Below, one piece after another: positions 9,039-64,000 of a stretch of DNA of 64,000 bases. The notes below the pieces were generated by a model. It was given only the letters and a program-made list of their open reading frames with translations, ran no database searches and was not told the origin of the DNA. The first letter of the stretch is position 1. Each line of letters opens with the position of its first letter. Origin of the DNA: a virus (taxonomy: Duplodnaviria; Heunggongvirae; Uroviricota; Caudoviricetes); IMG/VR virus record IMGVR_UViG_3300025327_000015. One strand, 5' to 3'. The position numbers and the translations under genes were made by a program.

Positions 9039-9511
9039 TCCGGATTCGCAGCGATGAGTCCAAAGACGAAGGTTTTTAGCTCAATTCCTCTAAACTCAAC
9101 TGGTATCTCGTTGCGAACTGTCAGGGAGCGAGCATCCGGGCCTCCAGAGAGCTGCACAGTCCAAGCAAGAGTTCCATCAGCCGCTTCGATGGATTCAAGC
9201 GCGACTCGAAGATCCTCCTCCATCTCATTACGAAGTACCCTGATCGAGTTCATGATGCGAGTAGAACGAATCATCAGCGCACCTTCGATGGTGACTCGCC
9301 GAGGACCTTTAAAGAAAGGATGAACGAGACCACCGTCGGTTTGCGGACGGTTATCTACAGGAGCACGAATGGGAGCCCCATCAAGTCCCTGGATATCGGA
9401 AATGTAATACTCATCTGCTCCGTAAGCATTGAAACTATCGATCCCCGAGTTATTGAAGAGAATTGTTCCTCCGGGAGTCGTAAGGGTATATTGGACGCTT
9501 AGATCAGCCAT
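9032..9511 (-). CDS. distal tail protein candidate
   Basis: 159 aa immediately downstream of TMP. Confidence 0.3.
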   Translation of the reverse strand: MADLSVQYTLTTPGGTILFNNSGIDSFNAYGADEYYISDIQGLDGAPIRAPVDNRPQTDGGLVHPFFKGPRRVTIEGALMIRSTRIMNSIRVLRNEMEEDLRVALESIEAADGTLAWTVQLSGGPDARSLTVRNEIPVEFRGIELKTFVFGLIAANPDW

Positions 9512-13474: not shown

Positions 13475-14088
13475 TTAACGGATACCTGCTAATTGCTTTT
13501 CAAGCTGTGCGAGTGCTAGATCATTCTGAGAAATAACTCCTCGCTGCGAGCGTGCCGTGTCTGGTTCCTCACTACCGCCAGCGGTAAAACCCGCTTGCCA
13601 CGACTTCGTCTGTTCGATTGTGTCTTCTAGGCTCATACCCAGACGCTGGAACTCTTGAAAGATCAACACATAAGCAGCATCCAGAAAATGGCCGAGTTTC
13701 ATAGCATCCGGATTCCCTCCGGCCAGAATCACGCGGCCTTCAATGAGACTGCGGTTTTCCCACGCCCACCGCCCGAGGGCGAGGGCGGATTCGTAGGGCG
13801 GGCAGTCTGGATCTCCACCATCCAACGAAGCAATTCATTGAACTTCACAAGTGGGATTGCATTGTCTTCACGTTCACGTAGCTTCGCCCATCGCTCACGT
13901 TCCTCATCGGAAGCAAGAAATGACTTAATGCGCTCATCTTGACGTTTGAGTACCTCCTGCGATTTCTCTTCCAGAGGTTCTTCATCCCAGGCTGCAAGAA
14001 CCTCCGGACGCACCCAGCGCATCTGGAAAGATTCACCTCCAATAGTGAAACCTAGATCTTGATCTAGGTCTGAATCGAAATTCTTCAT
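13475..14088 (-). CDS. tail assembly chaperone GT (via -1 frameshift)
   Basis: ORF 13475..13825 is in -1 frame relative to G, open only after a TGA just upstream of the overlap, ends exactly at TMP start; GGGAAAAC stretch (plus 13753..13761) in overlap. Confidence 0.45.
13729..14088 (-). CDS. tail assembly chaperone G
   Basis: 119 aa, RBS aaggagg upstream, overlaps -1 frame ORF that ends at TMP start. Confidence 0.55.
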   Translation of the reverse strand: MKNFDSDLDQDLGFTIGGESFQMRWVRPEVLAAWDEEPLEEKSQEVLKRQDERIKSFLASDEERERWAKLREREDNAIPLVKFNELLRWMVEIQTARPTNPPSPSGGGRGKTAVSLKAA

Positions 14089-26390: not shown

Positions 26391-26601
26391 GCAGAGTCCT
26401 CGGAAGAGGAACCCCCGAACTCACAACATATCCCTCGCGATTTGCATCGCTTTCTGTAGATGTGGTACAGTTACAACTGCTACTGAGCCGAAGGGTCAGT
26501 CGGTTATCTTGGCAATAAGAGCAGCCCGTGACGCTCGGGACACCCGACTCCCACACCATGCTCGTAGCTTCAAATCAACTCTTGCCGGGAGGTACAACAC
26601 G

Positions 26602-28182
26602 ATGTCTGATTATCTGACTCGCTACGGAACACGCGTCACGCCGCAGTCTGAGCGGATGCGTGAAGATCAGGTTCTCAACGAAGCTGGCGGCTTTGTTTGG
26701 GAGATCGACGCCTGGGCGCGGATGCGTCGTTTCCTAATTCTCGGAAGCGAAGGGGGATCGTATTACGCTTCCGAATTCCAGGCAACGAAGGATTCGGCTG
26801 CTGCTGTACGCCAGTGCATCAAGGAAGATGGTCTGCGTGCAGTAAAGGAGATCGTAGAAATCTCGCAGAAGGGCCGGGCTCCAAAGAATGATCCGGCACT
26901 CTTTGCGCTTGCCTGCGCGATTTCACTGGGTGATAAGGAAACGCGCTCGGCAGCTGCTGAGGCGCTACCTCTTGTCGCCCGTATTGGAACACATCTCTAT
27001 CATTTCGCCGCCTACGCGGAGACGATGCGCGGTTGGGGCCGGACGATGCGCTGGGCTGTTCAGAACTGGTATGACCGCAATCCCGAGCAGCTTGCACTTC
27101 AAGCGATCAAGTATCGTCAGCGAGATGGCTGGTCGCACCGTGATCTCTTGCGCCTAGCACATCCTTCTCGAAATGAAGAGACAGCTTCGCTCTTTAACTG
27201 GATCACGAAGGGTGTTCCAGAGGAAGGCAAATCTCTATCTGAAATCGTGGGAGGTTTTGAGCAGGCACAAAGCGCTACCACGCCACAGATAACGGCAAAT
27301 CTTGTCCGCGAGTATGGTCTACCACGCGAAGCACTCCAGACTGAGCATCTGAACTCGAAGGAAGTCTGGGCTGCGCTTCTAGAGATGCAGATGCCGATGA
27401 CGGCCATGCTACGTAATCTGGCCACCATGACACGAGTCGGAATTCTCGACTCGAATGATCATCGCAAGCTGGTTCTGAATGCCTTCGATAACCAGGAGGC
27501 GATCACAAACTCGCGTCTGCATCCGCTCGCCATTCTGATCGGAATGGAGACGTATGCACAGGGACACGGTATGCGTGGTCAGCATACTTGGAGCCCAATC
27601 GCTTCCATCGTGGACGCTCTCGACGGTGCTTTCTATAAGGCGTTCGGGAACGTGCAGCCTACTGGCAAGCGCCTACTCGTAGGTGTGGATGCTTCTGGAT
27701 CGATGCGAAGCGGAGTGATCGCAGGTGCTCCAGGAATGATGCCGGTTAAGGCAGCAATGGCAATGGCGCTCGTTTTCACTGCCACCGAGCAGGATGTCGA
27801 AACGGTGCTCTTCGATACCTCACTCTCGACATTCCCACTCTCTGCTCGACAGCGACTGGACGACGTTGTTCGTCGCCATCCAGGCCATGGACGAGGAACA
27901 GATGTCGCGCTTCCGATGCAATACGCAACAGCGAAGAACCGGCAGGTTGATGGCTTCGTTCTTCTAACGGATATGCAGACTTGGGCTGGTTATCAGCATC
28001 CAGCACAGGCGCTTCAGCAGTATCGCGAGCGTAGCGGTATTCCAGCACGCCTTGCCAGCGTCGCACTGATTGCTAATCGCTGGCAGGTGGCAGATCCACA
28101 AGATCCGCTAGCCTTCGAAGCAATCGGATTCGACACCGCTACACCAGAACTCGTTTCCGGCTTCGTTGCTGGTGAGTTCTAA
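26602..28182 (+). CDS. rsr: Ro60/Rsr ortholog (TROVE domain + vWA domain)
   Basis: Collinear similarity to human Ro60 throughout ([26 protein letters not shown] vs [75 protein letters not shown] MIDAS); GGGAGG RBS 7 nt upstream of ATG. Confidence 0.9.
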   Translation: [526 protein letters not shown]

Positions 28183-51075: not shown

Positions 51076-51756
51076 TGGAAGGCGTCATTATTGAAATCCG
51101 CGCAGCTGAAGGCGGTGACGATGCAAAAGATCTTGTCAAAGAACAGTTTTCTGTTTACATCACCTACTGCAAAAGAAGGCGTCTTTGACTATTCAATACT
51201 TGATGAGCGATCTGGAATGATCGTTGCTGAGATCCTTGGCGACGAGGCAGAAGTAGCATTTAGCAATGAATCCGGTGGTCATCGTTGGCAACGCATTCCA
51301 CCGAATGAGAAACGAGGTCGGCGTCATACCTCAACTGTCACCGTCGCTGTCTTCCCGATTATTCCTCCCCAAGATTGGGAATTTTCTGAAGGTGAGATCG
51401 AATGGGAGGCCATCTTAGGCACGGGTCCAGGAGGTCAGGCCCGCAATAAAACAGCAAATGTCATTCGAGCCACACATCTTCCAACGGGCATCTCAGTACG
51501 GATCTCAGATTCACGCTCACAGTGGCAAAATCGTCAGACTGCGTTTCGTTCTCTCGCAGCTCGTATCTCCGCTTACCATAAAGATGAACATTTGAAACGA
51601 GAAGCAAAAGAACGCCGAGAGCAGATCGGAAGTGGAATGCGAGGAGACAAGATTCGTACTGTCCGTCTACAAGATGGACGAGTTGTAGATCATCGAAGCA
51701 AGAAGAAGATGTCAATCGAACGCTATCTAGCCGGGCATCTCGAAGATCTGCACTAG
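51075..51756 (+). CDS. class I release factor homolog (PrfH/RF2-like, GGQ motif) requiring +1 frameshift at 51183..51189
   Basis: Frame 0 (ATG 51075) encodes MEGVIIEIRAAEGGDDAKDLVKEQFSVYITYCKRRRL then TGA; +1 frame continues DYSILDE...GTGPGGQARNKTANVIRATHLPTGISVRISDSRSQ; slip site CGU CUU UGA C with AGAAGG 3 nt upstream. Confidence 0.7.
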
Positions 51757-55747: not shown

Positions 55748-56488
55748 TCACAGTTTTTCCCAACGAGTAGTTATAAATTGCCCTGCCCCCTGAGAACGAC
55801 GAGCCCCAAGTCCATTCTTTTCAGCAACAGACATGATTCTAGTCCACTGTTCCTCTGTAAGACAATCGTCTAGAACAGAAAGCTGAACTGTAATAGTCGG
55901 ATTGATGACATACTCAAAATAGCCAAGTGTAGAACGTGTTCCAGTCCAATCTCGAATATGACCCACAGTAAGATCAAAACCATCACTGTCATCAGCGATG
56001 ATGATAGGTCTCTCTGGCACCCAGACAACTTCTGCAACGAAAGCTCGCGGACTTTTCCCTCCGACTTTCTGCCCCTGTCTTTTAATTGAGCGCGAAGAAT
56101 ACTGCCCGAATTTATGTTGTCCATCTGGAAAAGCAATACTTGTTGCTTCTTTGAACATCGCTTTTACATGTCGTCCTTCGAGATACGGTTTTCCATCTGA
56201 TGTTCTTTTGAAAACATTAGCCTTTTTCTCAATTGCATTCTCTTTAATTGCTTTTTCAATATCTTCGTCTGTAGCATCTTTTGGATCAAGCCCATAGGTT
56301 TCAGCAAGATGCTTAAGAGTCCATTTCTTGAGCATTTCTTCATCGGTAATACCAAGATTTTTTTTAAGCCAACCCTCAACCAATTCTGGATCGGAAGGAG
56401 AACCTCCAACCAGACGTCCGGTGAAATAAAAATCTGCTTCATACAAGATCCAGGCACTACTGTCAAAGACACTAACTGGTTCAATCAT
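55748..56488 (-). CDS. hypothetical protein
   Basis: 246 aa. Confidence 0.3.
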   Translation of the reverse strand: MIEPVSVFDSSAWILYEADFYFTGRLVGGSPSDPELVEGWLKKNLGITDEEMLKKWTLKHLAETYGLDPKDATDEDIEKAIKENAIEKKANVFKRTSDGKPYLEGRHVKAMFKEATSIAFPDGQHKFGQYSSRSIKRQGQKVGGKSPRAFVAEVVWVPERPIIIADDSDGFDLTVGHIRDWTGTRSTLGYFEYVINPTITVQLSVLDDCLTEEQWTRIMSVAEKNGLGARRSQGAGQFITTRWEKL

Positions 56489-56547
56489 AAATTAGCTCCT
56501 AAAAGATGAAGATTGTCGATGCGTATCGATGAGGGGAGAAGAAGCGC

Positions 56548-56900
56548 GTCAATTGGAGAAGATGGAGGTGAGCAAGGGGAGAAGTAGTGCGTACCGGGCC
56601 GGTCTAGTCTATTAGGAAGGGCAGGGGCGATGTGAAAGCGCTGAGAGCTGGGCAAGAACGACGAGGCGAGTCAAATGGTGAGGGGAAGGCGGAACTGATC
56701 GCGCGCAAAGCAGACGAGAGCGGGCTGGTCAATTAGGAAGGACAGAGGCGTAGAGAGCCCAGCGCGTGCGAGTAAGGAGCGAGCAGGACTGTCAATTGGA
56801 AAGAGCAGCAGCGTGAACGATGTGACGTGACCTGGGGAGTCAAATTAGAAGTGAGCGGAAGAGAAATGACGAAAGCGGGTGCGGGTTGTTAATTAGGATC
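56548..56900 (+). repeat. iteron-like array: 7 direct copies of GTCAATTRGRARG about every 48-63 bp
   Basis: Copies start at 56548, 56607, 56670, 56728, 56791, 56839, 56887, each preceded by GCG-rich context. Confidence 0.55.
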
Positions 56901-57392
56901 TTCCTCAGTATGGAAGTATTTATTCCATACAGAGTTAATCTGTTCATCAGAAAGACATTCAATTGTCATACAGGTATCATCTGGATGAAGAGATGCAATA
57001 GTACGATGAAATCCGGCCCAACGAAGTTCAGTTGCAGCCCTAACTTCCCGTTCTGCGGCAACAAAAAGATGCTCTGGTCGAGTCATCGTCAATAATGATT
57101 TATGAAAGGTCCCTCCAACATGGGCAAAAACATGCGCTAGCCGTTCTTTTACAGGCCCAGTTTGATAGGGAGCTTGGGCACGTATTTTCGCTCGTACTGA
57201 ATTTGCAACATCCGGAACGATAAACTCCATTGAAAAGTTGTAAAGAGCTTCGATGAATTCTTCATCATCGCGGAAATGTCTTTTAGTACGTTTCAGAAGT
57301 TGCCTAGTATCTACCTCCTCTTCTTCCGCATATACATTCTCAACGAAATCAGCAATGACTTCGCGTACATTGAGCATCGTAGTGCTGGCCAT
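56889..57392 (-). CDS. hypothetical protein
   Basis: 167 aa. Confidence 0.3.
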   Translation of the reverse strand: MASTTMLNVREVIADFVENVYAEEEEVDTRQLLKRTKRHFRDDEEFIEALYNFSMEFIVPDVANSVRAKIRAQAPYQTGPVKERLAHVFAHVGGTFHKSLLTMTRPEHLFVAAEREVRAATELRWAGFHRTIASLHPDDTCMTIECLSDEQINSVWNKYFHTEEDPN

Positions 57393-57440
57393 GTGACCTA
57401 GTGTACTAGATGACTAGGTACCGTACAAGAGGGCTCTCTC

Positions 57441-57572
57441 AACTTTTTTTCGCTTCTTGCGCCAAAATTCGTCGAACCCACTCTGAGAGAGTCAACTGCT
57501 CCTTATGGGCAGCTTCCTTCCAGAGCACGAGCAGAGCTTCCTCCACTTGTACGGTAAGTTTCTTCTTCATCG
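57441..57572 (-). CDS. ribbon-helix-helix (CopG/Arc-like) small DNA-binding protein
   Basis: MKKKLTVQVEEALLVLWKEAAHKEQLTLSEWVRRILAQEAKKS; not in ORF track (43 aa). Confidence 0.4.
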
Positions 57573-57977
57573 CAGGAAGGGAGAGGCTTCCTTCCACCAG
57601 ACGGGGAAGCGATTCTCGATCAGTGCGGGCGGGTACTTTCGGCGAAGGGCCTTCTGAAAGGAGTAAGCGATAGCTTGAAGGGCGCGTGTATAGAGACGCT
57701 CGTAGCCTTTGAGCCCATACTCATCGAGAGCATTGAGCGCAAACTCCCATGCCTCTACCTCCTCTACGAAGCGAGGATTCTGGCGAGAGCCATGTAAGAC
57801 GACATGACCCACTTCATGCGCCAGGATCCCGAAGCTAATAGATCCTATTGGCTCAGGAGCTTCGATCGTTCTGTCTTCATGAGCACAGCCAGCGTAGGAT
57901 GGCCGATAACGGCGAACACTGACGCCATACTTAGCTAGAAGATCTTCTGCCGCCTGGCGGTAAAGGTTATTCGTCAT
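57567..57977 (-). CDS. ImmA/IrrE-family zinc metallopeptidase
   Basis: ILAHEVGHVVLH HEXXH motif. Confidence 0.55.
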   Translation of the reverse strand: MTNNLYRQAAEDLLAKYGVSVRRYRPSYAGCAHEDRTIEAPEPIGSISFGILAHEVGHVVLHGSRQNPRFVEEVEAWEFALNALDEYGLKGYERLYTRALQAIAYSFQKALRRKYPPALIENRFPVWWKEASPFLR

Positions 57978-58011
57978 AGCGTAACTCTACCACCTTACGG
58001 TACTTACGGCA

Positions 58012-58085
58012 AGCCTCCAGCCGGATTCGAACCGAGCGCTTCGGGTTTGAAGGACCCGTGAGCTAGACCGCTACTCAATGGAGGC
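58012..58085 (-). tRNA. tRNA-Glu-like (anticodon UUC)
   Basis: Acceptor gcctcca/tggaggc, D-stem gagt/gctc, anticodon stem cgggt/acccg loop ccttcaa, T-loop ttcgaat. Confidence 0.45.
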
Positions 58086-58121
58086 GAGTCCGGAGGGTGG
58101 GTATCGCTCGTTCGATGTGTA

Positions 58122-58194
58122 CGCCCTCAATCGGATTCGAACCGATGTGTTCACCTCGACAGGGTGACAGACTAGGCCGCTGTCTGATGAGGGC
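58122..58194 (-). tRNA. tRNA-Asp (anticodon GUC)
   Basis: Acceptor gccctca/tgagggc, D-stem agac/gtct, anticodon stem tcacc/ggtga loop ctgtcga, T-arm atcgg-ttcgaat-ccgat. Confidence 0.6.
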
Positions 58195-58199
58195 AGGTA

Positions 58200-59340
58200 A
58201 GGCGTTTCAAGCATGGAAAACGTTCGAAGAATGGCTTGTGAATAGGCGTTTCATGTCTGGGAAGCGTTCGGCGCGGGCCTGCGAGCGTGCATGTCATGGA
58301 AAGCGTCAAGCTCAATGGCTCAAAGGCTTGTTTTAAGCGCGTTGCAGCTCTGGTTATCACAGCTTCAATGGCGCAGCACGTGGTGTGGTGGTGAAATGTC
58401 TTTGATATGGCGCGTTTCAGTCTTGGGAAACGTCGCCGTTGTGGCGCGTGCTTGACGTGGCTAAACGTGTCCAAGATGGCGCGTTCATAATGGGTATACG
58501 TGGCCGAAGTGGCATAAATAGGTGTTTTCGAGCGTGAACACCTTGATTATCGTCGTTAAGCTGGCTTTAGGACGTTTTCCTAGTGGGAATCGTGGTAATC
58601 CTAGCGCGTGTTCCGTGTGGGGAACGCATGCGGGTTGGCGCGTATTCAAGTTGATGAATGTGTGAGTTCTGGTGCGCTGAGGCTGTGGAAAACGTTCGTA
58701 TAGCGCGTGTGGTCGTATAGATATCAAAATATTTGAACTCGGCGTCCGTGGTATGGAGATCTCGTGGTACGCATGGCCGTATAGGAAATGAAGAATGCTC
58801 GTTTAATTGGTGCTTCGGCTGAGGGATATCGTGGATGCTATGGCGCTTGAGTTCTGGTTGTCGCTCCGGACTTGGCCGTATAAAATGGCGTTTGGAATAT
58901 GGAAATCGCTGGGACTGTGGCTGATGTAAAGATCCGCGCATCGTCTTTGATGAAAGGAGTTTCGCTCATGGCGGGTAACAGACATGCTTCGTATGGGTTC
59001 CGCAAGCTCCGTGATCTGTCGTATAGATACTATCAGAAACTAGAGAAAATGTTGTGTATATAGCGCTGAGCCTTGGAAACCCGTATAGGCGCCTGGGCGT
59101 AGCGGTAGCAGCTGGGTTTCCCGTCCGCCGTCGTCGTCGGCGCCTACCGCCGGACGGTACGGGGTGGATTCTGAAACGTTCGAGAATCGGCGCCGCTTTG
59201 AGAAGGCTTTGAGAACCGACTTGACAGATTGCAGGGACCGGCCCCATACTGGGGGTGCCCCGCAGGACGGCGGCGAGACCGCGTACCGGGGGCGAAAGGC
59301 GAGACGTTTGACAACCTAAGCCGGTAGTCGCCCAGATAGG
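58200..59340. repeat. about 1.1-kb noncoding region with dispersed ATGGCGCGT-like and AACGTTCG motifs
   Basis: At least 8 copies of (A)TGGCGCG(T) (58407, 58442, 58476, 58625, 58701, 58839, 58885...) plus aaacgttcg repeats; only short overlapping ORFs. Confidence 0.45.
59166..59188. promoter_or_regulatory. operator-like inverted repeat GGATTCT-N10-AGAATC (first of 5 copies)
   Basis: Copies at 59166..59188, 60596..60621, 61549..61572, 61852..61873, 62799..62820, each 20-60 nt upstream of an RBS and start codon. Confidence 0.5.
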
Positions 59341-59352
59341 GAGGCACTATCC

Positions 59353-60183
59353 ATGTCTAAGACGACTACCAAGCCGCGAAAGCGGCTATCCGCCGCGGAC
59401 CGTGAAACCCTCACGGCGGCCGAATCGCAGCTCGGATACTTCTCCGAGGAGATTCGGGCCATCGCAGTGTCCATCGGCCGGGAATGGGTCAGAGTTGGCA
59501 TCCTGCTAGCGCAGGGAGCCGCACTACTCGAATCCGTCCCCGCGTTGATGGCCCAGTTCGGATCGCCCGAAGGCTGGGCCCGGACCGTTCTCCCGGAATA
59601 CTCTGGGGGAGAGGGAACCGGCGGTATCTGGGGCTCATCCCCCGCGTACCGTGCGTTGCAAGCCGGTCGCGTTGCGCTGGTTCTAGGTGACGACGTCGGC
59701 GATGCGAGTGTCGCAGCCCTCGTTCCGCTTCACCGGGTTATCTCCGGCGTCAAGCCGGAGGACCAGGAGAAAGCGGAGACGAAGGTCCGCACCCTCTGGA
59801 CCCGTGCAGGAAAGCGGGGGACCCCTACCCTGGCGTCCATTACGAAAGTTCTGGACGGAATGGCAGGGACCCGCGGGAAGCCGAAGGGGTCCGAGAAGAC
59901 TCCGGGGTCCGGGCGGAAAGGAAAGGGGAAAGCATCGGCTAAGCCTGCCACCACGCAGGCCGAGCCGGAGTTGACTCAGAAGGACCTTTCCGCTATCGGA
60001 CAGAAGGTGGCGGGCATCCTGAAGAACTATCCCGACGAATCTCGTCGTGCGGTTCTTCTCGCCATGCACGCTACCGCCGCATTGTGCATAGACTTTGGTG
60101 CGGCGAACGTTTCCGGAGTCATTCTTGCCCGCCTGAAGGAAAGCGGGAACGGGAAGACCCGGAAGGCTAAGGATTCCAAGTGA
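59353..60183 (+). CDS. Lys/Arg-rich hypothetical protein
   Basis: 276 aa; GGGAGG RBS; basic K/G-rich central segment. Confidence 0.4.
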   Translation: MSKTTTKPRKRLSAADRETLTAAESQLGYFSEEIRAIAVSIGREWVRVGILLAQGAALLESVPALMAQFGSPEGWARTVLPEYSGGEGTGGIWGSSPAYRALQAGRVALVLGDDVGDASVAALVPLHRVISGVKPEDQEKAETKVRTLWTRAGKRGTPTLASITKVLDGMAGTRGKPKGSEKTPGSGRKGKGKASAKPATTQAEPELTQKDLSAIGQKVAGILKNYPDESRRAVLLAMHATAALCIDFGAANVSGVILARLKESGNGKTRKAKDSK

Positions 60184-60643
60184 ATCCGCCTAGCCTGCGA
60201 GTCTGGTCAACGATCCTCGCGAATCGCATCGGTACGCTCGATGCAATAGCGGGGCACAAGATCCGCTAGACAATCCACTACTTGACTACCGGCTTAGGTT
60301 GACTGGGGGACCCGAAAGGGTCCCCCTCTTTTTGGTCCCGGACGGGTCCTCCCCCTAATCCCGGACGGACCCGCGGGATAGGAAGGTCCTTCATTCCCGC
60401 GCGGCGGGAATAATCCCTGCCTCCCCGGATCCTTCCCGTGCGGGGGAGGGAACCCCCTGCCTCATCGGTTCGCCACCTTGTGTCCTGCCTTGACAACGTA
60501 CGAGGGAGGCGTGAGACAATGTAAGTGCGGGCTCGGCGCGTTTCGGGCGCTGATAGACCTGACTCCCCACGCTACCGCGTCGGCCCGCATCCTTCGGGAT
60601 TCTGAAACGTTTGAGAATCCCCCGTCCGGGAAGGAGACCCGCG

Positions 60644-60871
60644 ATGGCGAATCGCGAGTTCCACCTGGCAACGGAGCAGGGTCGGCCGCTTGCGGTCGTT
60701 CTGGCCCCTTCCGAACTTGCGGCGAAGGATGCCGCAGAAGGACTCTCCGAAATCATCGGTGGTAAGCCGGTGGTTGTGCGCGAGTACCTTGGGTTCCTAT
60801 GGGGTAAGGATCGGCTTTCCGAGCCGCTCTATTCCACCGCCCAGGGCTGGGTGGCGGCTGCGTTCCTGTAG
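60644..60871 (+). CDS. small early protein
   Basis: ATG 60644 preceded by GGAAGGAG and operator palindrome. Confidence 0.35.
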   Translation: MANREFHLATEQGRPLAVVLAPSELAAKDAAEGLSEIIGGKPVVVREYLGFLWGKDRLSEPLYSTAQGWVAAAFL

Positions 60872-61610
60872 TCGCTGCGGTTCCTGCCGACTTGTGCGGC
60901 AGGTTCCGGAGCTACTGAAAGGAGAACCTCATGCTCCAGGTCCGAATGGACCCGGCGGCTATGGCGCGCCTAGAGCGCGAGCTGCTGAGCCTCGTTGAGG
61001 TCGAGGTCGAGGTTCCTCCTCTAGTATCCCTCGACTCCATGCTCGTTCACATCGCTCGTTACCTGAGCGCTGCGGGGTATGGAGACGAAGTTCATAAGCG
61101 GGACGATATGCGGCGTGCTCATTCAGGAGTTCTGCCGCATACACAGCGGCTTCGGCTTCTTGCCGATTATCGTCTGCTCATGCTTCAAAGAGGATTCCCG
61201 CTAGAGGAGGTTGCTCACTTCGATCGCTGATTGCGGTTTCCGCCGACATAGTGCGGCGGATTCCGGAGCCACACGGCTCTAGATAGGGGGTATTTCTGTG
61301 CCTCGGAATCCTGGACATCGTGAGGGTATCCGGCGTTATCGGCGGTCTGGGCAAACTGCCCTGCTGACGGTGGCGACTCTCGTTACGCAGCCGAGCGTTA
61401 CGCATCGTTGCGTAGTCTGCTTAGACGTGGGCTGTGAGTTCTGCCCTGCTGTCGATATCGGTACTTGCCAGTCCTGCGGCGCGTACTGGGATCGCACACA
61501 GAGGCAGGTCTGTCCGTGCGGCGGGTACATCGGTTAGCTCTGCGGGTCGGATTCTCAAACCTTCGAGAATCCGCGCCCGGAGCGCTAGACACTCCAGAAA
61601 GGAGGAAATC

Positions 61611-61799
61611 ATGCCCGACGAACTTTCTTTGGTTTTGGTCGAGTGCATGGATTACAACGCCCGCTGTACGGAGTGGGCGCTTTCGGCTGCGCTTGAAAGC
61701 GAGCGAATAACAGTCGCGCGGCTCGAAGCTGAGAACGCGGAGCTGCGTAAGCGACTCTTTCGGATTCAAGAACGAGTCGCGTGGCTGCTCAGAGCTTAG
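61611..61799 (+). CDS. small early protein
   Basis: ATG 61611 with AAAGGAGG RBS after operator palindrome. Confidence 0.35.
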   Translation: MPDELSLVLVECMDYNARCTEWALSAALESERITVARLEAENAELRKRLFRIQERVAWLLRA

Positions 61800-61841
61800 C
61801 GCTGCGGGTTCCTACCGCCAATGGTAGGTTCCCGGAGCGCT
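61798..61841 (+). other. conserved post-stop hairpin element CTGCGGG(T)-[variable stem-loop]-(T)CCCGGAGCGCT (one of 8 copies)
   Basis: Copies: 60872..60915, 61231..61270, 61533..61585 (operator as inner hairpin), 61798..61841, 62236..62283, 62609..62652, 63057..63097, 63367..63410; inner stems differ in sequence but all pair. Confidence 0.55.
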
Positions 61842-61898
61842 AGGCGTTCCCGGTTCTCAAACCTTTGAGAACCGTCCTGCGAATAGGAGAATCCTAAA

Positions 61899-62234
61899 GT
61901 GGCTACCAGAACTCCTGGGCCACTTATCGGAGCGCGTATTGCAGCGGACGTGCTCTCGAATGGATACCTCGTCTCTACCATCCTTCGCTCGCCCGAGATG
62001 CGAGATGTGGATGGATTGGTCGGTGCATTGGTCGGTGCATTTTCGTCTCTCTTAGGAGAAGAAGATGAAGAGCGTGCTGATCTTCTGACTCCGGGTGACT
62101 ACGAAACGATGGTCTTTCGATGCTCGGAGGAAGGTGAAGTCGAAAGCTGGACCGAACTCGATTTCCGGCGTTATGTCACAAAGGACGAGGCTCTCGCCGG
62201 ACACGAGGAAATCGTCGGTAAGTGGCTCGACTAA
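61899..62234 (+). CDS. small early protein (GTG start)
   Basis: RBS TAGGAGAA; follows operator palindrome. Confidence 0.3.
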   Translation: MATRTPGPLIGARIAADVLSNGYLVSTILRSPEMRDVDGLVGALVGAFSSLLGEEDEERADLLTPGDYETMVFRCSEEGEVESWTELDFRRYVTKDEALAGHEEIVGKWLD

Positions 62235-62332
62235 GAACGCTGCGACTCCTTCCGCAATAGGCGGTCGGGGTCGGAGCGTTTCAGCTCCTCGGAACTCACT
62301 GTGAGTTCTGTCCTGCGAGTAGGAGGTCTTTC

Positions 62333-62608
62333 ATGGCTTCCCTATCTCGGCGTGTGTTCTCGGATGAAGATTGGCAAGAGATGGCGGAAACGTGTGTTGT
62401 CATCGGAGACGTAGCCACTCTCGCACTCGGAGAATCCACACTCGCCGATGAAGCGCAGCGCTACCTCGCGGCAATCGAGACTTTCCGCGCAGAATGTAGC
62501 GATCTTCGCTGGCTCCCAGAGTGGGAGCTGCCGAAAGTGCCGCATTGTGAGAACTGCGGAGAACCGACCGAATGGCCGCAGCGGTATTGCGACCGTTGCC
62601 AGACATAG
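62333..62608 (+). CDS. small protein with C-terminal Cys4 zinc ribbon
   Basis: HCENCGEPTEWPQRYCDRCQT. Confidence 0.35.
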   Translation: MASLSRRVFSDEDWQEMAETCVVIGDVATLALGESTLADEAQRYLAAIETFRAECSDLRWLPEWELPKVPHCENCGEPTEWPQRYCDRCQT

Positions 62609-62843
62609 CCCTGCGGGTTCCGTCGCTACCGCGCGGCGGTTCCCGGAGCGCTTGACAGAATCCGTAGCGAGTCTGTCATGCTGGTCCAAGAGTCGAGATT
62701 GCGTGAGCTGCGCTTTTTAACCGAAAGCATTAGTAGTGCCTCGGGTGGACAAGCCCGGCGAAGTAGGAGAAGCGCAGCTCACGGAGTCTCTGACTCCCGA
62801 TTCTCAATCATTTGAGAATCGCCTTTCTAGAAAGGAGTCCGTT

Positions 62844-63056
62844 ATGGCCGCTCGCAAGAGCGCATCCAAGAACGGCGCCGTATCCGTCTCGATGGAGATG
62901 GATCGGGACACGAAGAACACGATCCGCTTCGCCGAGGTCGTGAACGGACCGCTCGACGTTCCGCAGATCGGTGTTCTCTACGTCCCGAAGGCAACGCTTG
63001 CGGCGATGGGGTTCGAGGACGGTCACAGCCTCCTCGTCTCGATCGCACTCGCCTAG
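62844..63056 (+). CDS. small early protein
   Basis: ATG 62844, AAAGGAG RBS after operator palindrome. Confidence 0.35.
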   Translation: MAARKSASKNGAVSVSMEMDRDTKNTIRFAEVVNGPLDVPQIGVLYVPKATLAAMGFEDGHSLLVSIALA

Positions 63057-63123
63057 CGGTGCGGGTAGGGCCGGTTCTCCGGCCCCTCCCGGAGCGCTAA
63101 AGCGTTCCAGAAAGGAGGTCAAA

Positions 63124-63366
63124 ATGGCTGAGGCCATTACGATCCTCGATCTTGTTGTGCATCGGCTTGGTCGTCCTGCCATTACAGGACAGGACTTCGA
63201 AGATGCGGGACTTGCGATTCTCGGAGGGTGTGAAGGCTGTGGAGCGTCACTCGCTGCCTATAACGCTTATCCATCTAAGTCGGGGTTCTGGCGCTGTGGT
63301 GACTGTCTCTGCGATTCGGGCTGGGAGTCTGTCGAAGAAGCCGATCACGCAATCTTCGGCATGTAG
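63124..63366 (+). CDS. small Cys-rich protein
   Basis: AAAGGAGG RBS; GGCEGCGASL...WRCGDCLC. Confidence 0.35.
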   Translation: MAEAITILDLVVHRLGRPAITGQDFEDAGLAILGGCEGCGASLAAYNAYPSKSGFWRCGDCLCDSGWESVEEADHAIFGM

Positions 63367-63436
63367 CTCTGCGGGTCATCTACCGCCAGCGGTAGTTGGC
63401 CCGGAGCGCTACCCAGTCGCTCCAGAAGGGAGAATC

Positions 63437-63691
63437 ATGTACCTGCTGATTGCTCTCGGCATCCTTGCGTGCGGGCTCGTTACGCTCGTGCTCATGGGCA
63501 TCGTGCTCTGGCAGGAATCCCATCACAAGGATTCCGAGGAGACGGTTCTTTACTCCGAAGATTACGGAGTCGTCAGAGGCGTCGATCCGTCTTGGATCAA
63601 TCCCAAACATCTAAATGATTTCTTCGAGACGCGAACGGTTCCTCGTAAGCATCCAGCTCGCCGAACTCGGCGTTCTCGGGCACTTCATTAG
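63437..63691 (+). CDS. small membrane protein
   Basis: MYLLIALGILACGLVTLVLMGIVLW TM helix. Confidence 0.35.
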   Translation: MYLLIALGILACGLVTLVLMGIVLWQESHHKDSEETVLYSEDYGVVRGVDPSWINPKHLNDFFETRTVPRKHPARRTRRSRALH

Positions 63692-64000
63692 CTTTGAGGG
63701 TTTCACCGTGAAAATACGGTGATTCCCTGAGAGCTACCCGGCTCTCTGGAAAGGAGGTCCATCCAAATGGACGAACCAGCCTTTTCTGAGATTTCCGTCC
63801 AACGCGGAAATCTGGAAGCGATCTGGGAATACATCGGCGAGGGCTGGTCAGGGGAGTTTGATCCTGACGATCCTGACGATGTGCCGCTTCTTCGGTTCAC
63901 TGTCTATCAGGACGGTGAACAGATGGAGGACATGAGCTACTGCACCCAGATGCCAGTCAGTACGGACGAGGGCATCCTTCGGCGTGCGCTCGAACTCATC

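Follow-up and report, generated by a model that had tools for sequence, protein, structure and literature searches.

Translational attenuation of the ermC type relies on mutually exclusive RNA helices. In phage T7, RNase III sites separate the early genes (reviewed in PMC3867540). RNA-unfolding coupling and attenuator-type switches are represented by rpmI-rplT, f1 VII-IX, and MS2 (reviewed in PMC12548453), and ribosome termination structures (RTSs) were described by Chemla et al. in 2020 (PMC7518266). Repeated motifs beside phage genes include the ESAS and SAS of Cluster K mycobacteriophages (PMC3203893), whose function was still unverified in PMC12699233, and the PeSL cassettes of T4-type phages (PMC2839356, PMC4122927). 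Here, we describe a family of hairpins lying between small genes of an uncultivated virus of the Caudoviricetes (IMG/VR record IMGVR_UViG_3300025327_000015), of which a stretch of 64,000 nucleotides (hereafter, the window) was analyzed. The element is a sense-strand RNA module with its 5′ arm built on a stop codon; what is new is that its 3′ arm has a second, covarying partner beside the ribosome-binding site (RBS) of the next gene.

A preliminary description of this DNA placed eight such elements after consecutive small genes, and hairpins are found at all eight places (Table 1). The family is not limited to positions 60872-63410, as that description had it: a ninth copy lies within the window, and the array runs past the window end. 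The source contig (L045; JGI 3300025313, 92 kb; L045 coordinate = window coordinate - 53436) was recovered by exact-protein look-up. There, a covariance model built from 15 copies matches 21 copies, all on the plus strand and all within the array over ~12 kb, and ~3 more degenerate copies can be recognized by eye, for a total of ~24. When positions 1-60800 of the window were searched with the model filters off, nothing exceeded 12.7 bits, and hence no copy was found outside the array. For the strict motif CTGCGG-N10-40-CCGGAGC, 5 occurrences were counted where 0.08 would be expected (0/100 shuffles). Each stop-to-start spacer in the array, 54-105 nt long in simple cassettes, folds into the common nested hairpin.

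This hairpin consists of a lower stem (UAGCNCU/AGNGCUA), a 1x1 G·G mismatch, a middle stem (CGGG/CCCG), a small internal loop, and a variable inner hairpin, together an irregular helix of 7 + 4 + 6-12 bp (17-23 bp) with 1x1 and 2x2 loops. The arms, TAGCNCTGCGGG and CCCGGAGNGCTA, are ~12 nt long and enclose an inner hairpin spacer of 18-40 nt; they pair as first described, with one G·G mismatch. The mismatch is G·G in 21/22 copies and A·G in the other, and the U-A and C-G pairs on either side of it hardly vary. Lower-stem pair 5/73 is a pyrimidine·pyrimidine mismatch in 10/22 copies. Folding z-scores of the window copies range from -3.7 to -8.7. The first three nucleotides of the hairpin are the upstream UAG stop in 14/21 L045 copies, and TAG ends 21/31 array genes versus 6/55 genes elsewhere in the window. 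The earlier statement that the stop is TAG each time holds for six of its eight copies; TGA precedes the copy at 61228, and a TAA lies 3 nt upstream of that at 62235.

The inner stems were said to differ between copies and always to pair, with clear covariation, and this is upheld on both unfitted and model-fitted alignments and extends to the outer stem. In an unfitted MAFFT alignment of 15 copies, 91.5% of cells are paired (73.7% when shuffled), both sides have changed in 13/17 pairs (6.0 when shuffled), and the covariation score is 0.464 (0.165 when shuffled; best slid control, 0.133). The model-fitted alignment of 22 non-redundant copies gives 91.7% (73.4%), 13/17 (7.5), and 0.473 (0.164; best slid control, 0.146). 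The shuffle count is 0/500 for every one of these measures, to be read with the caveat that the copies are paralogs of shared ancestry and such counts are therefore not probabilities. The outer stem covaries like the inner one because 8/11 of its pairs have changed on both sides. Among paired cells, G·U occurs 19 times versus 3 for A·C, and it is therefore the sense-strand RNA that folds. A DNA cruciform or antisense RNA is unlikely, given this asymmetry and the far lower model scores of the minus strand.

The 3′ arm has a core (B, GGAGNGC) that is also complementary to a segment (C) located 3-9 nt downstream, which takes forms such as GCGUUCC, CGCUCC, CACUCC, GCUCUC, CCUCC, and GGUUCC. The best B:C helix has 5-7 bp and a loop of 3-9 nt in 18/21 cassettes as scored; cassette 58b was mis-scored, with the GGAG of its inner hairpin taken as the start of B, and it actually forms 7 bp. 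The mean for cognate B:C duplexes is -9.3 kcal/mol versus -6.8 kcal/mol for non-cognate ones (0/5000 permutations), and RNAalifold, run on an unfitted alignment of the 3′ part, predicts B:C with the variable position occurring as CG, UA, AU, and GC. Against controls, B:C cells are paired in 78.6% versus 72.0% (2/500) and the covariation score is 0.290 versus 0.193 (3/500), with slid controls at 0.13 or below. In all ten G·U cells (10/10), G is in B and U in C, and the position of B that covaries with C is the one mismatched with arm A in 10/22 copies. Upstream of an orthologous gene 10, the B:C pairs differ in three phages, and each is complementary. A:B and B:C are two mutually exclusive helices, both of which covary.

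Segment C usually ends in the CUCC of an array-specific RBS motif, TCCAGAAAGGAGG, which has 12 copies in L045 versus 0.63 expected. This CUCC can pair with the GGAG of the Shine-Dalgarno (SD) sequence of the next gene (segment D), making a weak C:D hairpin (CUCC-AGAAA-GGAG) possible. When the first 7 nt are masked, 13/16 cassettes refold so that the inner hairpin and B:C form together; the refolding costs +6 kcal/mol on average (range 1.4-11). In the predicted ground state, the SD is mostly paired, with a P(unpaired) of 0.20.

Of the candidate roles that the preliminary description listed without choosing among them, translation coupling gains specific support: the stop lies at the base of the 5′ arm, and near the next RBS is an alternative partner of the 3′ arm, which covaries with it and carries an anti-SD CUCC. 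We tentatively favor, at somewhat less than an even chance, a model in which the module would be a switch set off by the terminating ribosome, coupling or insulating the translation of neighboring genes. Each element is a cis-acting part of the polycistronic early mRNA and has two alternative folds. In the ground state, arm A (UAGCNCUGCGGG), which opens with the upstream stop codon, pairs with arm B (CCCGGAGNGCUA) around the variable inner hairpin, and C, ending in CUCC, can form the weak hairpin with D; in the alternative state, C replaces A as the partner of B. The terminating ribosome is favored as the trigger because arm A holds the stop codon that it must unwind. On its arrival at this codon, arm A would be opened, the released B would capture C, and the SD of the next gene would stay open. 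Each gene's translation would in this way promote initiation on the next across a gap of ~60-100 nt, a form of RNA-unfolding coupling that has precedent across ~50 nt, for example in rpmI-rplT (PMC12548453). Where no ribosome terminates, the closed hairpin just after the stop would block scanning and re-initiation and so also serve as an RTS-type insulator (PMC7518266). Six relatives with homologous small genes in abutting or overlapping open reading frames (ORFs) lack the module (L059, L062, L063, L064, L066, and L068), which agrees with the published split between post-stop structures and short-spacing re-initiation (PMC7518266).

A bolder proposal, which we regard as doubtful, is that these elements form a serial "ribosome relay" and hence a new class of phage cis-regulatory RNA. 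In this proposal, ~24 three-helix switches, each built on the stop of a gene, would succeed one another along a 12-kb early operon, so that initiation on each gene would depend on termination at the gene before it. The invariant G·G pair might be what a dedicated phage factor or a nuclease recognizes.

Several observations weigh against a ribosome-triggered switch. With arm A masked (15-nt mask), the predicted P(unpaired) of the SD rises only from the ground-state value to 0.33, and the SD of some copies (E7, for instance) finds another pairing partner. The C:D hairpin has just 4-5 bp to set against a strong SD (AAAGGAGG). In E4, E5, E13, E30, and 58b, B:C cannot free the SD directly because another hairpin intervenes between C and the SD. 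The stop is 9-13 nt upstream of the hairpin in E14 and L057a, and E28 has no obvious upstream ORF. The near-invariance of the G·G mismatch (21/22) is explained only in part by the switch, and the dataset comprises four distinct phages with many copies sharing ancestry. B:C is also kept even where it is away from the SD, which a 5′ stabilizer accounts for better than coupling does.

This last point belongs to the strongest of the rival explanations, to which we assign a lesser but still appreciable probability, namely that the element is an endonuclease processing site. RNase III, or a phage or host nuclease reading the purine·purine mismatch, would cut the outer stem to yield single-gene mRNAs. 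The upstream mRNA would possibly keep the hairpin as a 3′ protector, and the downstream mRNA would start within B, with B:C as a 5′-terminal protective hairpin. An irregular 17-23 bp helix with conserved internal loops is the T7-type structure, for which the RNase III sites between T7 early genes provide precedent, and the near-invariant G·G with its flanking U-A and C-G pairs suggests sequence-specific recognition. Processing leaves unaccounted for the use of the stop codon as the first three nucleotides of the stem and the enrichment of TAG, and, apart from two HNH endonucleases, no RNase III or other nuclease domain is found beside the array among the 25 families listed (of 30 found) for 59 ORFs.

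The remaining rivals are all improbable. Passive punctuation is one of them: stable hairpins would block 3′ exonucleases and/or scanning ribosomes, or act as factor-dependent attenuators, with no functional switch. The elements are very stable, begin at the stop, and occupy spacers of at least 25 nt, as in the definition of RTSs (PMC7518266), and the module is absent from relatives in which spacings are short or overlapping. Punctuation alone would leave the conserved outer-arm sequence, the invariant mismatch, and the covarying B:C helix unexplained. The preliminary description had judged the elements not to be classical intrinsic terminators, and rightly so: a G+C-rich hairpin is present, but the U-tract 3′ of the stem is absent in every copy. 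None of the elements is among the terminator-like sites, of which the only strong one is a canonical U-tract terminator upstream of the array at 60305-60333.

There is similarly little to recommend a site at which a dedicated RNA-binding regulator (an antiterminator or translational repressor, for example) would recognize the basal helix with its G·G. Purine·purine pairs are classic protein-recognition features, and one is present here. The outer-stem sequence is conserved in four phages, whereas variation and even replacement are tolerated in the inner hairpin. No candidate protein was identified, the 276-aa product of the first gene having no Pfam, PHROG, or PDB sequence match, and such a site would explain neither B:C nor the placement of the stop codon.

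A slim chance likewise attaches to DNA-level recombination linkers, in which stop-hairpin-RBS repeats of ~75 bp would provide homology or a recombinase site for the gain, loss, and shuffling of small-gene cassettes, as in T4-type PeSLs (PMC2839356) or integron attC sites. The surroundings of gene 10 differ in L045, L058, and L067 with a module at each junction, L058 has a hybrid-like E3/E11 module, and E6 and E18 share an identical 38-nt core. The G·U versus A·C asymmetry and the covariation in two competing helices indicate, however, that selection acts on RNA. Furthermore, no recombinase was found among the 25 families listed (of 30 found) for 59 ORFs of the window and L045, the arms are unlike the attC R-box consensus, module-free relatives are equally mosaic, and the relative contigs are only 0.5-1.4 kb long. 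It is plausible that recombination between modules is a side effect of the repeats. The mobile REP-like element proposed at the outset is not borne out, as no copy lies outside the array, none is found in 185,579 species genomes with a 23-base signature, no Y1 transposase or recombinase is among the families listed, and the inner sequences do not derive from one master.

Other candidates were rejected more simply: stop-codon readthrough fusion on direct reading of in-frame stops within or just past the elements, programmed translational bypass on direct reading of mismatched take-off and landing codons, a suppressor tRNA because none is among the tRNAs, and a dimeric double-stranded DNA operator because arm spacing varies by >20 nt and the arms covary.

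The same module is present in three other distinct metagenomic phages (L057, L058, and L067), identified by a metagenome scan and protein look-ups, and the family is thus not confined to one genome. Gene order at the orthologous gene 10 differs in L045, L058, and L067, with the module at each junction, and the L058 module upstream of gene 10 resembles a hybrid of the 5′ part of E3 and the 3′ part of E11; the relative contigs that support this junction comparison are 0.5-1.4 kb long. In L067 (430-546), the post-module gene resembles a GIY-YIG homing endonuclease by eye (..VYVARG..YVGST..R..EH), and the gene at that position differs in each of the three phages. Within L045, E6 and E18 (beyond the window) have an identical 38-nt core at 9176-9213 (window 62612-62649) and 13637-13674, 4.4 kb apart, a pattern suggestive of gene conversion or of a recent duplication. 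This shared core is exactly where short-read contigs break, and a Logan contig bounded by E6 and E18 was rejected as a circle, being an assembly break at the repeat.

Wider searches returned little. A blastn search of the region against 50,697 isolated phages gave no match, a 23-base signature had 0 matches in 185,579 species genomes, and a looser pattern gave only single matches of 23 bits or less in the latter. No convincing relative was found in IMG/VR, and a viral-contig scan with the strict motif yielded 44 loci, nearly all chance matches within coding sequence. One intergenic hairpin in a phage-like contig of 70% G+C (L044 3798-3859; IMG/VR 3300046012_000211; 28 bits) keeps the G·G mismatch and has CAG..CTG in place of TAG..CTA; whether it is a distant relative or a chance match is ambiguous, as is a 16-bit match in L035. 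No relatives were found via the 276-aa protein, the phosphoesterase led only to unrelated high-GC phages without the repeat family, and a homolog search with a 178-aa array protein returned the same phage only. L046-L050 and L056 match the source contig with 100% identity, so that no variation is gained from them.

The window belongs to a large, phage-like genome of ~50% G+C that encodes a terminase (at most 36% identity to any isolate), a collagen-like fiber, a Ro60/TROVE protein, and, in the window, seven tRNAs. The rightward module that holds the array begins at ~59.0 kb, where G+C is 57-60%; its first gene, of 276 aa, ends at the canonical terminator noted above. The small genes of the array, which extends ~8.5 kb past the window end in L045, have no Pfam or PHROG match. 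Between tRNA-Asp and the first rightward promoter, window positions 58200-59100 form ~0.9 kb of apparently non-coding DNA with iteron-like repeats (AGGCGTTTCA..GGAAAACGTTCG x5; AACGT..TGGCGCGT x4, 34-35 nt spacing), which may be an origin or regulatory region. The Ro60/TROVE protein, which also has a vWA domain, is encoded at 26509-28182 (+) and occurs in a relative as well (L059 14211-15755). A 221-aa protein (window 51091-51756, +) resembles a class-I release factor, with a Pfam RF-1 domain including GGQ (1e-24) and the C-terminal part of PCRF (1e-10); it is notable beside the 68% UAG among early-gene stops.

A second repeat family consists of 18-bp palindromes (TTCTCAAAnnTTTGAGAA), with 13 copies in L045 versus 0.08 expected. 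An SD usually follows 5-15 nt downstream, and three of the palindromes form the inner hairpin of the element, among them the one in the copy at 61535, as first reported. The palindrome is probably a DNA operator, because the mismatches of imperfect copies are not of the wobble type. Genes for tRNA-Tyr and tRNA-His lie within array spacers past the window end (L045 14385-14458 and 16160-16234), with a palindrome near each. In the long spacer after E6 (window 62654-62843), where TTGACA is fused to the 3′ arm of the element, an extended inverted repeat (GCGTGAGCTGCGC..GCGCAGCTCACG) is accompanied by a short run of T; an internal promoter, small RNA, or attenuator may lie here.

Table 1. Hairpin elements, associated motifs, and array genes, in window coordinates.
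Feature	Position	Strand	Model score (bits)	Folding z	Stop and stem	Pairing and neighboring signals
E1	60869..60917	+	49.9	-5.0	First 3 nt are the UAG stop of gene 60644-60871; arms shortened (CGG/CCG)	Clear C partner not seen
E2	61228..61273	+	33.9	-3.7	Degenerate; TGA stop; lacks the lower stem	B GGAGCC 61265-61270 pairs with C GGCTCT 61275-61280
E3	61535..61587	+	31.4		UAG stop at base; inner hairpin is 18-bp palindrome 61552-61569	C is CTCC alone, 61592-61595, within TCCAGAAAGGAGG 61593-61605
E4	61797..61842	+	56.5	-6.6	Consensus copy, UAGCGCU.G.CGGG..CCCG.G.AGCGCUA	B GGAGCGC 61834-61840, C GCGTTCC 61844-61850 (7 bp, loop 3); separate palindrome 61854-61871 ahead of RBS
E5	62235..62281	+	46.5	-6.5	Degenerate; TAA stop 62232-62234, 3 nt upstream; outer stem compensated (CGAC/GTCG), G·G retained	B GGAGC 62273-62277; C GCTCC 62284-62288
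E6	62606..62653	+	50.8		UAG at base	No C partner; 3′ arm leads into promoter-like hexamer TTGACA, 62652-62657
E7	63054..63099	+	55.2		UAG at base	B GGAGCGC 63091-63097; C GCGTTCC 63102-63108 adjoins AGAAAGGAGG (SD 63114-63117)
E8	63364..63411	+	40		UAG at base	B GGAGCG 63403-63408; C CGCTCC 63418-63423 adjoins SD 63429-63432
E9	63689..63736	+	53	-8.7	Ninth copy; outer stem compensated (GCUUU/AGAGC, AGGG/CCCU), G·G retained	B GAGAGC 63729-63734 pairs with co-varied C GCTCTC 63741-63746; SD 63753-63756; next gene start 63767
18-bp palindrome TTCTCAAAnnTTTGAGAA	59169-59186, 60600-60617, 61552-61569, 61854-61871, 62801-62818					
Array-specific RBS motif TCCAGAAAGGAGG	61593..61605; others 62826, 63106, 63421, 63745	+				
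Small orphan gene array, window part	60644..64000	+				Elements sit between its genes
Array genes 1-5	60644-60871, 60931-61230, 61298-61537, 61611-61799, 61899-62234	+				
Array genes 6-10	62333-62608, 62844-63056, 63124-63366, 63437-63691, 63767 onward	+				

Phages keep host-takeover and anti-defense functions in long arrays of small early genes, and how expression is ordered within these arrays is poorly understood. The present family is an unusually clean natural dataset for this question, with dozens of paralogous copies and two competing, covarying helices tied to stop codons, and related phages show two solutions to the same problem, overlapping ORFs versus structured spacers. A ribosome-triggered switch, if true, would be a concrete, testable case of structure-mediated coupling over long spacers as well as a compact, portable part with which the cistrons of synthetic operons could be coupled or insulated. 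The relay, if true, could point to a role for the Cluster K ESAS/SAS motifs.

When compared to described RNA families, the elements match none in Rfam 15: at a threshold of E<=1, the only cmscan matches in positions 56000-64000 were two tRNAs and a snoRNA match attributable to chance (62372-62417; 20.5 bits versus a gathering score of 39) that overlaps no element. The attC sites and REP/BIME elements are similar in being imperfect palindromes that lie after small ORFs and whose conserved outer arms flank a variable center, whereas the wobble asymmetry of the phage module indicates RNA. The attC R-box (RYYYAAC/GTTRRRY) is not in the arms and no IntI is among the 25 families listed (of 30) for the 59 ORFs; for REP/BIME, the species-genome searches gave no chromosomal copies, and no RAYT (Y1 transposase) is among the families listed. 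The PeSLs of T4-type phages also flank orphan genes with repeated stop, stem-loop, SD, and start motifs in a plastic early region; PeSLs occur at differences between relatives, as the phage modules may do, judging from junctions on contigs of 0.5-1.4 kb. PeSLs are defined by a strong sigma-70 promoter and a terminator stem-loop, whereas most of the phage modules have neither promoter-like hexamers nor a U-tract; a search for a PeSL-type promoter gave 7 promoter-like sites versus 7.5 expected, and TTGACA is seen by eye only in E6 and E24.

The Cluster K motifs are alike in that imperfect inverted repeats with a variable spacer are followed by a conserved, RBS-overlapping motif, upstream of many non-structural genes and in one orientation. 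ESAS has 17-bp arms and a 4-13 bp spacer, unlike the ~12 nt arms, 18-40 nt hairpin spacer, and embedded stop of the phage module, and the 13-bp SAS (GGGATAGGAGCCC) has 3 matches at two or fewer mismatches versus 1.3 expected, none of them in the array. The T7 RNase III sites share conserved, irregular hairpins of ~20 bp with internal loops, located between early genes and without U-tracts. There is no sequence similarity to the T7 sites, which have neither an embedded stop nor a documented covarying alternative partner, and cleavage of the phage module would be by analogy with them.

In RTSs, as here, a stable structure stands at or after the stop, in spacers of at least 25 nt, and is absent where ORFs abut or overlap. 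RTSs are statistical and sequence-independent, whereas the phage modules form a single family that is defined by sequence, the arms being conserved and the mismatch invariant, and that has a competing helix. In RNA-unfolding and attenuator-type switches, helices are mutually exclusive and a ribosome on one segment frees another, exposing a downstream SD, as we would predict for the phage module. The latter differs in occurring ~24 times in series in one operon, in starting exactly at the stop, and in having a weak SD-masking helix. The element therefore has the structural features of an RTS and of an RNase III-type substrate, combined with the two-helix architecture of attenuator-type switches. 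It belongs with the repeated intercistronic regulatory hairpins of phage early operons, from which it is distinguished by its embedded stop codon, invariant purine·purine pair, and covarying alternative helix.

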